Source: an uncultured archaeon
GTDB taxonomy: Archaea > Asgardarchaeota > Thorarchaeia > Thorarchaeales > Thorarchaeaceae
DNA: 64,000 nucleotides
NCBI GenBank assembly: GCA_964473825.1
Contig: CAYYQL010000007.1
Span: forward strand, 1 to 64,000
Direction: 5' to 3'
Below are positions 17,934-34,349 of this stretch, one piece after another. A model generated the notes under the pieces. That model was given only the letters and a program-made list of their open reading frames with translations, ran no database searches and was not told the origin of the DNA. The stretch's first letter is position 1. Each line of letters begins with the position of its first letter. Made by a program: the position numbers and the translations under genes.

Positions 17934-19136
17934 TTGGCTGAAACTCTGACAAAACCATCAAGACGCATCAGAAACATGATAGCCAAAGAGCTACGCCTTA
18001 TTGTGAAGGATAAGGTCGCCCTATTTCTCATATTTCTCCTGCCTGCCGCCCTGATTGGGATGCTGTATTGGGTCACCAATGAGAGCTCCATGGGAGGAAT
18101 GCAAGCGGGGGGCATCGGTAGCGGCGGGTCAACAGGGGGTACTGGTAATGTAACGGATGATGGGGGAGACATCTTTGAGGGAGTAAACATCAGCCTAGGA
18201 CTCATCGACAAGGACACTACTAGAACCTACGACGGTGTGGATCTGTCCGAGAACTTCACGGCATACTTGGATAACATTGTTTCGGACCTGAGGATATACG
18301 ATAGCACAGAAGAAGCATTCAACGCATTGTACGAAGAGGAGATATCGGGATACGTGGTGATTCCGGATGGATTCGAGGCCAACCTCACCGCGAACGAGCC
18401 AACATATGTTCTGGTTCATATGGATGCAACGAAACCCATAGAGCAGAGTACAGTTATGGGGGTCGTGCAAGGTGCGACAATCGCATTCAGAGCGTCAAAA
18501 CTATGGATACGCTCGGAGGTGTTTCCAACCATCCAGATAGAGTTCGCTCCTGAAGGAGGATACCTGGAGAGCACTTTTGGAGGATTCATCGTTATATTCT
18601 CAAGCTATCTAGGAATAGCCATGACGTCAGCCCAGTCGATAGTGGGTGACGAGCCACTCAGGAGGATGCTTCTAACTCCAACCAACCGTCTCGAAGTCAT
18701 TGTAGCAAAGGTCTTAGCCTACGTTGTAATCGGATTCTTCCAATCCCTCCTGCTGGTATCATTGTGGGTCTTTGTGTTCAATCTGAATCTGAATACGGGG
18801 TTTGAAACACTGCTCATCATCATGAGTCTGAGTTCTCTCACTGGTTCAACGACAGGAATCCTCATCTCCTCCGTGTCTTCAACCCGCCTGCAAGCCAACC
18901 AGATGTTTCTCTTTGTCCTGTTTGGAACACTGATTCTCTCCGGATTCTTCATCGATGTGGGCATCATAGACGAGTTGATGCCATTGAATCAAGGGCTGAA
19001 GATATTGATAGATACAGCATTCAAAGGACTGACATTGGCTGATGTAGCCGACCCCATTCTACGATTGCTGGCTTTTTCAGTTGGAACAATACTGCTGGCG
19101 ACGTTCATATTCTCAAAGAAACCGACACTAGGATAG
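17934..19136 (+). CDS. ABC-2 type exporter permease with extracellular domain
   Basis: KELRLIVKDK + TM1, extracellular loop (Gly-rich, GYVVIPDGF), LRRMLLTPTNRLEVIVAKVLAY, five further TM helices. Confidence 0.88.
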   Translation: MAETLTKPSRRIRNMIAKELRLIVKDKVALFLIFLLPAALIGMLYWVTNESSMGGMQAGGIGSGGSTGGTGNVTDDGGDIFEGVNISLGLIDKDTTRTYDGVDLSENFTAYLDNIVSDLRIYDSTEEAFNALYEEEISGYVVIPDGFEANLTANEPTYVLVHMDATKPIEQSTVMGVVQGATIAFRASKLWIRSEVFPTIQIEFAPEGGYLESTFGGFIVIFSSYLGIAMTSAQSIVGDEPLRRMLLTPTNRLEVIVAKVLAYVVIGFFQSLLLVSLWVFVFNLNLNTGFETLLIIMSLSSLTGSTTGILISSVSSTRLQANQMFLFVLFGTLILSGFFIDVGIIDELMPLNQGLKILIDTAFKGLTLADVADPILRLLAFSVGTILLATFIFSKKPTLG

Positions 19137-19140
19137 ATAG

Positions 19141-20832
19141 GTGATTGAAATGGTACAGACGAAGGCTGCTGAAGAGGCGGAAACCGCTGAAACACCATCA
19201 TTTGTTGAAGAGGCCTATTTCTCAGGTGCAAGGATTGGGGAGGCGATTGATTGGGTCCTGAGCAGAAGAGATAGGGAGATCCACTGTGATGTGCAGGGAA
19301 AACTCACAACTTCTGGCGAAGAGGTAAGATTCACGGGACGAGTACTGAAAGTGAAGAAGGGTGTCCTCTCTAGGATGATTGCAGTGCTCGTAGAGGAGGA
19401 TCTTCGCAAGCGCAAGAGGACCCCTCTAGACAGCGTCTTGACTGTCGGCAGTGATACAACATCAACCCAAGATGTGGCGGCCATGCAGATCACAGTACAG
19501 AACTACCTCAAGAGAGACCTTGCTGATGATATGTTCTTCACTGGCCCTGAACTTCAACAGGCGGTAAAGGATGTCAATAAGAGGATAAAGGCCCATGAAA
19601 TATCTTGCACCGTCTGGGGGAAGAGGGCATCGGATAAATTACCTATCGTGATAAAGGGAGATCTCATTGGAGCGTCTGTCGGTCCAGCCCCAATTCTTCC
19701 AGAGGGGAATCTGGAGGTAAGAGTAGAACCAGAAGAGGGCGTTGGCAATCCTAAAATCTACCTTGTGGCACAACCGCAGTTTCTCTTTGGACCCAGATCC
19801 AATCCAAATCTGACTGTTCTTGCTCAAAAGGTCTACATCGAGCCCTATGCTTGGAAAGAGTCTCCCGCCTATCGAAACGTTCTGGAGGCGAGAAACCTCA
19901 CAGTTACTCTCAAGAGTGGGAAGACCATCATTGAGAACGTCACATTCTCTCTCAGAGAGGGAGAGATGCTAGCGGTGATTGGCGAGTCAGGTGCCGGCAA
20001 GTCTACCACCATCAAGGCGCTGATCGGGGATATTCCCTCAACCGGAGTTGCGAGGATAGCGGGGATAGACTCACGCAACGCACAGAGAGTTCGTTACTTC
20101 TTCGGATACTGCCCACAAGATCTTAGCTATCTCTATTCAACGTTCACGCCCTTGGAGAATATCGTGGCCTTCGGCAAACAGTACGATATTCCCGAGTGGC
20201 AGCTCATCAAGGAAGGAAAGACCCTACTGCGGGACTTCGGGATTCTTGAGAAAGGAAACAGCAAGACCAGCGAACTGAGTGGGGGACAACAGCGTCGAGT
20301 CTCTATTGCGGTCGCACTTGTACATCGTCCGAAGGTCCTGCTCATGGACGAACCAACAAGCGGCCTAGATCCTGATAACCGCAGTGAGCTCTGGCATTTC
20401 TTGGACTATATCAATCAGGAATATGGCACATCTATGGTTGTTATCACCCACTATCCCGTTGAGGCCGAGTTTTGTGACAAGGTTGCAGTCTTCATGCGAG
20501 GGAAAAGCCTCGTGGCATATGGCGCACCCAGTAGCTTGAAGGAATCGATGCCAAACCGAGGATTCGCTGTAGGCATTGTCCTTGAAGAAGTAGATCCTCG
20601 CGCCAGAAGAATCCTCGAGAACGTCAAGGGGGCTAAATTTGTCCTCCAGCGCGGCGAGCTTCTCAAGGTCTTCACAGAAGAACCGCTCCAAGTCATTGCC
20701 GAAAGATGCCTCACTGCATTAGAGCAGAGTGAAATCGGTGTGAAGATTGTCAAAACCAAGTCTGTCGCAGATATGGTTGACTATTACATCGCCGTCACAA
20801 GAGGGCTCATAACTGGTTTCATAGAGAAGTGA
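19141..20832 (+). CDS. ABC transporter ATPase with two N-terminal TrmB-C-like repeats
   Basis: GESGAGKST, YCPQ, LSGGQ, LLMDEP, ITH all intact; ~240-aa N-terminal extension made of two related repeats. Confidence 0.88.
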   Translation: MIEMVQTKAAEEAETAETPSFVEEAYFSGARIGEAIDWVLSRRDREIHCDVQGKLTTSGEEVRFTGRVLKVKKGVLSRMIAVLVEEDLRKRKRTPLDSVLTVGSDTTSTQDVAAMQITVQNYLKRDLADDMFFTGPELQQAVKDVNKRIKAHEISCTVWGKRASDKLPIVIKGDLIGASVGPAPILPEGNLEVRVEPEEGVGNPKIYLVAQPQFLFGPRSNPNLTVLAQKVYIEPYAWKESPAYRNVLEARNLTVTLKSGKTIIENVTFSLREGEMLAVIGESGAGKSTTIKALIGDIPSTGVARIAGIDSRNAQRVRYFFGYCPQDLSYLYSTFTPLENIVAFGKQYDIPEWQLIKEGKTLLRDFGILEKGNSKTSELSGGQQRRVSIAVALVHRPKVLLMDEPTSGLDPDNRSELWHFLDYINQEYGTSMVVITHYPVEAEFCDKVAVFMRGKSLVAYGAPSSLKESMPNRGFAVGIVLEEVDPRARRILENVKGAKFVLQRGELLKVFTEEPLQVIAERCLTALEQSEIGVKIVKTKSVADMVDYYIAVTRGLITGFIEK

Positions 20833-32955: not shown

Positions 32956-33041
32956 GATAGTGAGATAGGGTCTAGATGTGGCCAAAAGCAGTCGACCCTA
33001 TTACTTAAATCATTTAGTTCAGAATAACACAATGCCGCGAG

Positions 33042-34349
33042 ATGGGCAAAGCAGGCGGGGCTCCGATGACAGATGAAGAGCTACTCCTTGACCTCCGGGA
33101 GAGATTAGACCAGCTGGGGATACAGGAGAGAGTTATCCCCGAGAAGATACGCCGACCCTTGGTCATGACAAGAATGAGAAGACAGCTGGCCAACAGAGAG
33201 GAGGAGCTAGAACGGTCGTTGAGCGCTCTTCAAGACGATGAACTGCTTCCCGAACTCCTGTTCAGACTGGGTAATCTGCATCTAGCAGAGGAAGACCTCT
33301 CCCGTGCAATCATGCTCTATGAGAAGAGCCTGGAAGATGATGACCGGCAAATCCAGGCATGGATAAATCTGGGCCTGGCCAACCTTCTCGATGACCAGCC
33401 TCGAGAGGCAATCTCGTGCTTCGGCAGTGCCCTCGCTATCGAACCGGAAAACCCAGAGGCGCTCACCTACTTGGGTCTTGCGCACCTCGAGATTGGCGAA
33501 TACGAGATGTGCAAAAGAAACCTGCGAAGTGCAGTTGAAGGCGCCCCGAACAGCGATCGCACCAACCTTGCGATGGGGTTATTGTTCAAGGAGGAGGGAA
33601 ACCTCCACGCGGCCATCGGATGGCTAGAAAGGGCCGTCAAAGCAAATCCATCTTGTGTGGGGGCGCACCTAGAGCTCGGCAGAGTCCATCTACAGCAGGG
33701 CAGCTTTGAGAGGGCGCTCCAGGCACTTGAAAAAGCGAGAAGAGAGGACCCTGAGCAGCATGACGTACTCGAGGTCATGGGAGATCTATACTTCAAGATG
33801 AAAGACTACATGAAGGCTCTGGAGTACTACGACCTTGCCATCAATCTGAAGATGGACGACCCTGAGCTCTGGATCAAGAAGGGGGACACTCATGCTGAGA
33901 GCAGTTCCTATAGACAGGCATCTGAGGCCTATCTGAGGGCGATGAATGCAGACCCGGGAAGTGTTATGGCATGGGTGAAAGCGGGACAGATGCAACTCTT
34001 GCTGGGGCATATGGGTGCTGCTCTTGAATACTTCAACACAGCCCTCACTCTGGATCCCAATAACTCAGACGTAGCCCATAGGAGAGGGCGGATCTATATG
34101 GCCATGGATCGATTGGAAGACGCCTTGTCAGATTTCGACCTCGCGTTCTCCACCGACCCGGGAAATCCGGAACATCTCTACTATCGAGCGCACGTTCTTG
34201 AGAAGCTTGAGCGTCTACCTGAGGCGCAGAGAACATGGGAAGTGGCTATGAATCTCTATGAGGAACTGGAGAAAGCAACACGGATTGCTGAGTGTGGGGC
34301 TCGAATCAGACGCATCAAGCGTAGAAGAGAAACAGAAGAATCCAACTAG
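33042..34349 (+). CDS. Tetratricopeptide repeat protein
   Basis: About ten 34-aa repeats (AWINLGLA, ALTYLGLA, AHLELGRV, LWIKKGD, AWVKAGQ). Confidence 0.9.
   Translation: MGKAGGAPMTDEELLLDLRERLDQLGIQERVIPEKIRRPLVMTRMRRQLANREEELERSLSALQDDELLPELLFRLGNLHLAEEDLSRAIMLYEKSLEDDDRQIQAWINLGLANLLDDQPREAISCFGSALAIEPENPEALTYLGLAHLEIGEYEMCKRNLRSAVEGAPNSDRTNLAMGLLFKEEGNLHAAIGWLERAVKANPSCVGAHLELGRVHLQQGSFERALQALEKARREDPEQHDVLEVMGDLYFKMKDYMKALEYYDLAINLKMDDPELWIKKGDTHAESSSYRQASEAYLRAMNADPGSVMAWVKAGQMQLLLGHMGAALEYFNTALTLDPNNSDVAHRRGRIYMAMDRLEDALSDFDLAFSTDPGNPEHLYYRAHVLEKLERLPEAQRTWEVAMNLYEELEKATRIAECGARIRRIKRRRETEESN

Follow-up and report, generated by a model that had tools for sequence, protein, structure and literature searches.

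What kind of machine would keep one permease beside two different ATPases, a protease-like surface protein and a giant calcium-repeat protein is the question raised by a locus at positions 17934 to 34349 of a 64,000-nucleotide stretch of DNA (hereafter the window; contig CAYYQL010000007.1, positions 1 to 64,000 of the forward strand, assembly GCA_964473825.1) from an uncultured archaeon of the Thorarchaeaceae (Asgardarchaeota). Asgard archaea, nearer to eukaryotes than any other known group, have a cell surface that is almost uncharacterised; literature searches on Asgard archaea and Thorarchaeota found no paper that describes this system. The analyses presented here suggest that the locus probably encodes a conserved Asgard envelope machine of the 'ABC-2 plus GIFT auxiliary subunit' type (ABC, ATP-binding cassette), similar to GldAFG of Flavobacterium and built around an inactive subtilisin-like protease. 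It looks like a membrane complex that has been kept across several Asgard classes and is filed in databases as a peptidase beside generic ABC genes.

Six open reading frames (ORFs) lie on the + strand of the locus with successive gaps of 4, 4, 0, –4 and 86 nucleotides (nt), and these coordinates and gaps agree exactly with the six co-directional genes claimed in a sequence-only reading of this DNA. Pfam and NCBIfam scans likewise confirmed the domain content named there (permease, two ATPases, S8 domain, calcium-repeat propeller protein and tetratricopeptide repeat, or TPR, protein), and the cytoplasmic tail proposed for each of the two large single-pass proteins was recovered by hydropathy, with lengths of 78 and 124 amino acids (aa). 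The features of the core, which we call below the permease, ATPase 1, the pseudoprotease and ATPase 2, are as follows (TM, transmembrane segment).

17934..19136, + strand: ABC-2 (type V) permease, 400 aa (PF12698, hydropathy)
19141..20832, + strand: ATPase 1, 563 aa (PF00005, 94.6 bits)
19192..19860, + strand: N-domain of ATPase 1, residues 18–240 (structure model, fold search)
20837..25231, + strand: pseudo-subtilase/GIFT single-pass surface protein (P0003), 1464 aa (PF00082, models, alignments)
21335..22210, + strand: inactive Peptidase_S8 domain, residues 167–458 (PF00082 139 bits, alignment to Tk-SP 3afg)
23954..24706, + strand: GIFT (GldG/IFT52-type) domain, about residues 1040–1290 (family profile against the PDB)
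24938..25228, + strand: pseudoprotease TM (1368–1386) and 78-aa helical cytoplasmic tail (hydropathy, alignment)
25232..26218, + strand: ATPase 2, 328 aa (PF00005, 90.9 bits)

The strongest argument that transporter and pseudoprotease cooperate is a pattern that runs across seven families of the phylum and survives both unlinking and rearrangement of the genes, the core genes being linked in six families and co-occurring, though unlinked, in a seventh. A full-length pseudoprotease orthologue was found in 36 of 36 genomes of the window's family, and the order permease, ATPase 1, pseudoprotease, ATPase 2, giant protein was seen in every locus fetched from this family and its sister family, with typical identities of 70, 74, 60, 74 and 60%, respectively. 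Elsewhere the order is changed (writing P for the permease, A1 and A2 for the ATPases and S8GIFT for the pseudoprotease, and using the anonymous labels f7, f9, f12, f19, f21 and f24 of the genome search for other families): it reads P-A1-S8GIFT-A2, then a Ras-like GTPase, in f12; A2-P-A1, divergent from S8GIFT, in f19; and A2-P-P'-A1-S8GIFT in genus g39 of f9, in f24 and in a Hodarchaeales contig. In these other lineages the place of the giant protein is taken by other proteins or by nothing; in the Hodarchaeales contig (L034) the pseudoprotease gene and a 66-aa ORF are followed there by a Beta_helix/NosD protein of 1359 aa (14847–18926 (+)) with TM segments at its N- and C-terminal ends.

Two parts of the core were also followed by profile through 251 genomes of the phylum (cutoff for the non-S8 part of the pseudoprotease, E ≤ 1e-25). 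Of these genomes, 98 matched the profile of the ATPase 1 N-domain and 94 that of the pseudoprotease part; the two coincided in 94, four genomes matched only the N-domain, none only the pseudoprotease part and 153 neither. Given that the genomes are mutually related, this table is to be read as a pattern and not as a statistical test. One of the four genomes with the N-domain alone is fragmented, and the other three have only stand-alone single-module ORFs of 158–166 aa. Three well-sampled families had neither part in any genome (0 positive of 26, 0 of 16 and 0 of 10). The expectation that the genes would co-occur in related genomes was thus strongly borne out, by synteny and by profile searches, for the permease, the two ATPases and the pseudo-S8/GIFT protein.

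The transporter part is of a familiar kind. The permease belongs to PF12698 (ABC2_membrane_3, 87.3 bits) and by hydropathy has six TM segments, with a large extracytoplasmic loop at about residues 47–215 between TM1 and TM2; orthologues are 67–72% identical across the family and 41–50% identical in two other families. Neither ATPase has a TM segment by hydropathy. ATPase 2 is a canonical DrrA-like ABC nucleotide-binding protein (TIGR01188 drrA, 173 bits, below the model cutoff), and DrrA-type models are the best curated NCBIfam matches of both ATPases. Walker A, Q-loop, signature, Walker B and H-loop are complete in each, are invariant across 18 orthologues of ATPase 1 and are conserved across 13 orthologues of ATPase 2 from six families; the earlier claim of two distinct, motif-intact ATPases therefore holds here and in the orthologues of all lineages. 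Judged by these motifs, both ATPases look able to hydrolyse ATP. Between Thorarchaeota and Hodarchaeales the identity is 44% for ATPase 2 and 33% for ATPase 1, N-domain included, and sequence comparison places the two ATPases in distinct orthologous lines.

What sets ATPase 1 apart is an N-terminal extension of 240 aa ahead of the ABC domain, so that the protein reads as two TrmB-effector-domain-like modules in tandem, then the ABC nucleotide-binding domain, then a C-terminal domain. The N-domain model (predicted local distance difference test, pLDDT, 89.3; predicted template modelling score, pTM, 0.86) consists of two strand-helix-beta-barrel modules. A PDB profile search with the N-domain found TrmB alone, at a non-significant E-value of 0.5, and a fold search was therefore needed to settle the assignment. 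The exhaustive search returned TrmB 3qph_A (Z 14.4, root-mean-square deviation, rmsd, 2.0 over 96 residues) and 2f5t_X, also TrmB (Z 13.8), the next unrelated match lying at Z 7.5, and Foldseek matched TrmB at E 8e-6. As modelled, the N-domain has the fold of the C-terminal subdomain of the TrmB effector domain (strand, helix, flattened barrel). This subdomain gives six of the seven sugar contacts in TrmB, with Asn305, Gly320 and Glu326 among the contact residues (PMC4158304). Each ATPase 1 module shares this build with the TrmB regulators (3QPH, 2F5T; PMC4158304) but lacks their DNA-binding domain and first subdomain, and the modules are duplicated and fused to an ABC ATPase. In the Atlas, 74% of the members of the cluster of ATPase 1 orthologues carry PF11495, for which the ATPase 1 of the window scores 19.7 bits, below the cutoff of 22.2, and the neighbours of the N-domain are TrmB regulators and its own Thorarchaeota cluster; the Atlas feature search with the N-domain gave no usable match. 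We conclude that the N-domain is a system-specific cytoplasmic element. Stand-alone ORFs of about 150–170 aa that match one TrmB-like module were also seen in three f21 genomes (G077, G085 and G092), in which the pseudoprotease was not found, and further stand-alone single-module ORFs occur in G033:C8, G025:C66, G169:C64 and G014:C21.

The pseudoprotease would be the central subunit, non-catalytic and on the outer side. Its parts follow one another as N-terminal anchor or signal, propeptide-like region, dead S8 domain, about 520 aa of beta-rich sequence, GIFT domain, Ig-like domain, TM and helical tail; hydropathy gives an N-terminal hydrophobic segment, the TM at 1368–1386 and the 78-aa tail, and the protein bears 25 N-x-S/T sequons. 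The closest sequence match of the S8 domain in the PDB is the archaeal protease Tk-SP (E 2.5e-42), and residues 470–1040, which are beta-rich, match no Pfam family. Residue alignment to Tk-SP (3afg), together with the orthologue columns, shows that in this protein the catalytic Asp is replaced by Gly, the His is retained, the Ser is replaced by Ala and the oxyanion Asn is replaced by Asp. Among 16 orthologues the oxyanion position is Asp in all, the nucleophile position is A, S, T or V, and the catalytic Asp and His are each sporadically lost (the Asp in this protein and two others).

When 1.84 billion cluster representatives were searched with a profile of the non-S8 part, about 50 full-length relatives came up, 1300–1780 aa long, the named ones belonging to Helarchaeota, Hodarchaeales and Promethearchaeota bins. 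In 14 of these the oxyanion Asn is replaced throughout, and mostly Gly, Ala or Thr stands in place of the Ser; most of the aligned members of 1536–1671 aa have the His replaced (by Arg, Ser, Asp, Gln or Thr). Overall the oxyanion Asn is replaced in 30 of 30 sequences inspected, and the nucleophile position reads A, S, T, V or G. Since many non-catalytic S8 positions are nevertheless invariant in the orthologue alignments, we argue that the family is a selected pseudoenzyme and not a decaying gene. As judged from its catalytic positions, the protease is dead, has long been so, and is so throughout Asgard archaea; the name 'S8 family serine peptidase' given to it in public databases should accordingly be corrected to that of a pseudoenzyme. 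The retention, under selection, of a subtilase fold after loss of the triad is shared with the CspC/CspA pseudoproteases, S8-family germinant receptors of Clostridioides difficile in which such a fold works in binding or signalling; the non-triad NCBIfam models of these (NF040808, NF040809) match weakly, at 41 bits against a cutoff of 675, which does not amount to orthology, and CspC/CspA differ in their spore germination context and in having no GIFT domain and no TM.

The sequence-only reading had called this protein S1P-like (S1P, site-1 protease) and its GIFT domain GldG-like, and both descriptions stand. At residues 1066–1152 the window's protein gives only weak GIFT/DUF4350/ABC_transp_aux matches (18.7–26.7 bits, below the Pfam cutoffs), but a distant orthologue, L026, passes the thresholds for ABC_transp_aux (PF09822, 37.6 against 34.7) and DUF4350 (PF14258, 33.5 against 30.4), and the family profile matches the GIFT domain of IFT52 in the PDB (5fms_A at E 2e-10, also 5fmr_A and 8bd7_B) and, only weakly, S1P 8uw8 (E 0.03). 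An AlphaFold2 model of residues 140–1290 (pLDDT 73, pTM 0.62) has as its top two Foldseek matches in the whole PDB the S1P entries 9csd_A and 8uw8_A (E 2e-17). On realignment, 8uw8_A matched over 560 residues (Z 31.1, rmsd 6.4; model 9–1106 against chain 190–873) and was the only listed entry aligned across both S8 and GIFT, plain subtilisins covering about 263 residues. Human S1P is built of a prodomain, an S8 subdomain, a P-like subdomain, a GIFT subdomain (residues 617–998) and a TM (PMC11231238), an order with which that of the pseudoprotease agrees.

Eukaryotic site-1 protease (MBTPS1/S1P/SKI-1; 8UW8, 8UWC, 9CSD) and the Asgard protein thus have the same succession of prodomain, S8, beta, GIFT, TM and tail. 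They differ in that S1P is active, with an Asp-His-Ser triad and the oxyanion Asn, whereas the Asgard protein is catalytically dead, carries an additional 520 aa or so of beta-rich domains that separate S8 from GIFT, and is encoded with an ABC transporter, as S1P is not. By sequence S1P is not among the best 60 of the 111 PDB matches of the pseudoprotease. Considering that the fold matches S1P while the sequence lies nearest Tk-SP and IFT52, we describe the layout as S1P-like and claim no specific kinship to S1P. The GIFT domain also occurs in OST48. A central subunit with the build of S1P and a GIFT domain of the IFT52/OST48 type would offer a prokaryotic model for the function of GIFT domains, which is puzzling also for bacterial GldG.

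Beyond the membrane the pseudoprotease ends in ...VGGV, with G1462 invariant in an alignment of 16 sequences, and the tail is conserved as far as the Hodarchaeales homologue, which ends in ...IGEV. Since this tail is the main cytoplasmic part of the pseudoprotease, its complex with the ATPase 1 N-domain was predicted. The pair gave a complex score of 0.34 against 0.00 for the best of three controls. Among solved complexes the mark was reached in 58 of 80 cases, and among mismatched pairs in 2 of 110; at 0.60 or below it was reached by 7 of the 80 solved complexes and by both of the passing mismatches. We treat the predicted contact as a weakly supported hint.

The closest known systems are the gliding-associated ABC transporter of Flavobacterium, GldA/GldF/GldG, and the wider group of ABC-2 transporters that are accompanied by GIFT proteins (PMC5682007; Pfam PF09822). 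GldAFG and the generic PF09822 gene sets share with the Asgard locus an ABC ATPase, an ABC-2 permease and a membrane-anchored extracytoplasmic GIFT protein that are encoded together and presumed to form a complex, and the adjacency that marks the generic ABC-2 plus GIFT-auxiliary set is found in six families. In contrast to GldAFG, the Asgard system has two different ATPases and TrmB-like modules on ATPase 1; in its auxiliary protein a dead subtilase and some 520 aa of beta domains precede the GIFT domain in one chain, and a conserved cytoplasmic tail comes after it; and the system is archaeal, with a single membrane.

A second comparison concerns ATPase 1. In the Wzm/Wzt O-antigen ABC-2 exporters the ATPase bears an extra carbohydrate-binding domain. 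The type-V ABC-2 plan with an added beta-rich domain on the nucleotide-binding subunit, possibly for selection of cargo, is common to both systems, but ATPase 1 carries its added domain at the N-terminus, as a tandem of TrmB-like modules; the outer loop of the permease is large, and there are two different ATPases.

We suggest that the core is a type-V ABC-2 transporter composed of one permease, presumably a dimer, and two different ATPases, in which ATP hydrolysis in the cytoplasm would drive the permease. Outside the cell, the ectodomain with its dead protease and GIFT domain would sit on the permease or next to it and may serve as a scaffold for binding and hand-over, and ATPase 1 may recognise cargo in the cytoplasm, as the extra domain of Wzt recognises O-antigen. 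We infer that the proteins form one complex, and that the pseudoprotease tail may dock on the ATPase 1 N-domain, as the complex model hints. As to cargo, the extra domains of Wzt, the TrmB fold, the presence of OST48 among GIFT proteins and the many sequons lead us to a tentative guess, by analogy, at an envelope building block such as a glycan or lipid-linked glycan.

Several observations weigh against this reading. In f7 the operon is A1-P-A2, and the pseudoprotease is encoded at a different place in the genome, next to a TPR gene; a Helarchaeota contig has no ABC genes adjacent to its pseudoprotease gene. Much flanking synteny is also conserved within the window's family, so that linkage inside the family alone is weak evidence. 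The cutoff of the GldA model TIGR03522 is 402.6 bits, far above the 103.5 bits of ATPase 1 and the 119.9 bits of ATPase 2, and neither the permease nor the S8/GIFT protein matched a GldF or GldG model (NCBIfam, E ≤ 0.01); we therefore do not regard the Asgard system as an orthologue of GldAFG. The three runs of the complex prediction disagree (0.00, 0.34 and 0.65), with a contact agreement of at least 0% and a partner pLDDT of at least 65. Finally, the idea of a glycan cargo is drawn from analogy, and no evident counterpart of TrmB G320 and E326 is seen in the ATPase 1 alignment, the profile alignment of the N-domain to TrmB (E 0.5) ending before residues 320–326.

Downstream of the core, the locus of the window continues with the giant protein and the TPR protein.

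26215..32955, + strand: giant single-pass surface protein, 2246 aa (4-nt overlap of its start with the ATPase 2 stop)
26332..27399, + strand: FG-GAP-type beta-propeller head of the giant protein, about residues 40–395 (PF01839, PF25292, PF13517)
27409..32469, + strand: calcium-binding TSP3-like stalk of the giant protein (PF18884 703.6 bits, motif count)
32524..32952, + strand: TM of the giant protein (2104–2122) and its 124-aa beta-rich cytoplasmic domain, the latter at 32581–32952 (hydropathy, identity)
33042..34349, + strand: cytoplasmic TPR protein, 435 aa, 86 nt past the giant gene (TPR families at 1e-45)

The giant protein begins with a signal-like segment and by hydropathy has its TM at 2104–2122, followed by the 124-aa tail. 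Its head exceeds the thresholds of PF01839 FG-GAP (36.4 against 22.1), PF13517 (33.4 against 26.9) and PF25292 (48 against 26.8), and its stalk carries about 73 D-x-D-x-D-G motifs at a 23-residue period, with 23% Asp and 703.6 bits for PF18884 (TSP3_bac). Within the family the head is the least conserved part (34–49% identity), the stalk is 63–68% identical and the tail 56–74%, so that the tail is as conserved as the stalk or more, and well above the head. An alignment of the stalk from 11 family orthologues has 2–27 gap positions in 1686 residues, repeat number and register being fixed across genera. This constancy is unusual for adhesins and suggests a spacer of defined length that carries a fast-evolving binding head; if so, the fixed-length calcium stalk predicts surface fibres of defined length in Thorarchaeota.

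The TM and tail of the giant protein were found in two families only, that of the window and its sister, with a single copy in each genome; one further profile match, to an unrelated frame of 788 aa in another family, is weak (E 4.7e-5). Whole frames that end in the tail measure 2197–2301 aa over both families and 2236–2301 aa in the window's family, and wherever the assembly permits, the frame lies about 7 kb downstream of the pseudoprotease. A giant gene that seemed truncated in the single-contig genome L020 was set aside: a 100-N scaffold gap (L020:11222–11321) cuts it at residue 818, and both the apparent truncation and the missing tail are therefore assembly artefacts. By Atlas language-model features the cytoplasmic domain lies nearest to eukaryotic clusters of coatomer/adaptin appendages (0.84–0.88 for the nearest named clusters, within feature scores of 0.84–0.90), with recognition below the 0.9 line of the tool; the tail had no Pfam match in 13 orthologues and no relevant match in PDB profile searches, which leaves the appendage lead without sequence support.

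A TPR gene follows the giant gene in 11 of the 13 loci with a complete giant, at 37–48% identity, and its product has no TM segment by hydropathy. One complete-looking family locus has no ORF of at least 150 aa for 4.4 kb past the giant (L013:15634–20000) and no TPR gene, nor was a TPR gene found there in L014. The TPR protein is a facultative companion. In this respect the sequence-only reading did not stand: it had made the giant protein and the TPR protein parts of one machine, yet the giant was found in two families only and the TPR gene is missing from some loci of the window's own family. We take both to be additions specific to the Thorarchaeota order, which would have acquired a calcium-stiffened stalk with a variable FG-GAP head, as adhesin or receptor, usually together with a cytoplasmic TPR adaptor. 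Among known proteins, integrin alpha and other FG-GAP propellers and TSP3 surface proteins (CglD and MtsD of Myxococcus) share with the giant the propeller head, the calcium-repeat array, the single TM and the cytoplasmic domain, the score of the giant against CglD coming from the repeats alone; unlike these, the giant is archaeal, lies in an ABC operon and has about 73 repeats at fixed number and register.

The conservation of these tails bears on the alternative that survives best, which we nonetheless hold to be unlikely, namely that the locus encodes a device for mechanotransmission or signalling. In such a device the ABC complex would move no substrate, and ATP would serve to reshape, assemble or signal through the pseudoprotease and the giant for adhesion, protrusion or contact with a partner, as in FtsEX or MacB-type bacterial systems. 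Both surface proteins do have a TM and a conserved cytoplasmic tail, that of the giant as conserved as its stalk and far above its head, and that of the pseudoprotease with its conserved C-terminus and the weakly supported predicted contact with the ATPase 1 N-domain (0.34 against 0.00 for the control); moreover, a TPR adaptor is usually encoded next to them, and a long stalk topped by an FG-GAP head has the look of a receptor or adhesin. The permease, however, is an ordinary six-TM ABC-2 member whose characterised relatives export substrates and not a four-TM protein of the FtsX/MacB type, and most lineages that bear the core lack the giant and the TPR protein, so that the machine does not exist for their sake.

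A bolder version, which we regard as quite improbable, is that the Thorarchaeota form is an integrin-like transmembrane device for adhesion and signalling (variable FG-GAP head, fixed-length calcium stalk and a coat-appendage-like cytoplasmic domain which, with the tail of the S1P/OST48-like pseudoenzyme, would be read out or driven by the ABC ATPase pair and the TPR adaptor), and that the S8-GIFT-TM protein is a surviving prokaryotic relative of the module behind eukaryotic site-1 protease. If true, the locus would unite, within a single membrane machine of the archaea closest to eukaryotes, several building blocks that were later used in the secretory and trafficking systems of eukaryotes.

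We give little credence to an ordinary ABC-2 efflux pump (for a drug, an ion or a lipid) whose unrelated surface-protein neighbours are kept by inherited synteny. Such a pump would suit the DrrA-type ATPase matches, the generic ABC-2 permease, the synteny of flanking genes beyond the cluster in the family, and the unlinked pseudoprotease of f7 and the Helarchaeota contig. It does not suit the shared patchy distribution of N-domain and pseudoprotease over the 251 genomes, with the pseudoprotease found alone in none, nor the adjacency in six families despite rearranged order and the co-occurrence even when unlinked; further, GIFT proteins are established companions of ABC-2 transporters (PF09822; GldAFG). 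That the S8 protein is a working protease with unusual catalytic residues, the ABC transporter exporting or maturing its substrate as in lantibiotic-like clusters, is scarcely believable, since, for all the strong conservation of the S8 fold with many invariant positions around the former active site, the Asp, His and Ser (at the nucleophile position) kept by P0135 and L014 and the public peptidase label, no sequence keeps the oxyanion Asn, the nucleophile is A, S, T, V or G, the His is R, S, D, Q, T or P in many and the Asp is lost in three proteins, a free variation that has the look of relaxed catalytic constraint.

Some further genes were seen near the loci of this putative ABC-2/GIFT machine. 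In f12 a Ras-family small GTPase lies directly after ATPase 2 (L025:10648–11172 (–)), where Thorarchaeota have the giant, and a few kb from the core operon, on the opposite strand, stands a second large S8 protein of 1574 aa (L025:3836–8560 (+)), with a TM at both ends and a long insert that splits the S8 domain. An Arf/Ras GTPase (L035:18730–19248 (+)) lies 4 kb from the Helarchaeota pseudoprotease gene. In the window, an 805-aa ORF without a Pfam family (15352–17769 (–)) is divergent from the permease gene; its N-terminal 100–160 aa or so are kept upstream of the permease in eight family loci fetched (24–37% identity, and 88% within the same genus), so that this part may belong to the neighbourhood. 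An 804-aa gene upstream of the Helarchaeota homologue was considered as its relative and rejected, the two being not similar. A 299-aa ORF (11833–12732 (+)) has no Pfam family. On the other side, convergent with the TPR gene, a 1097-aa protein (34363–37656 (–)) combines an N-terminal GNAT acetyltransferase with about 930 aa without a family, and its position is kept in at least five loci, the sister family included.

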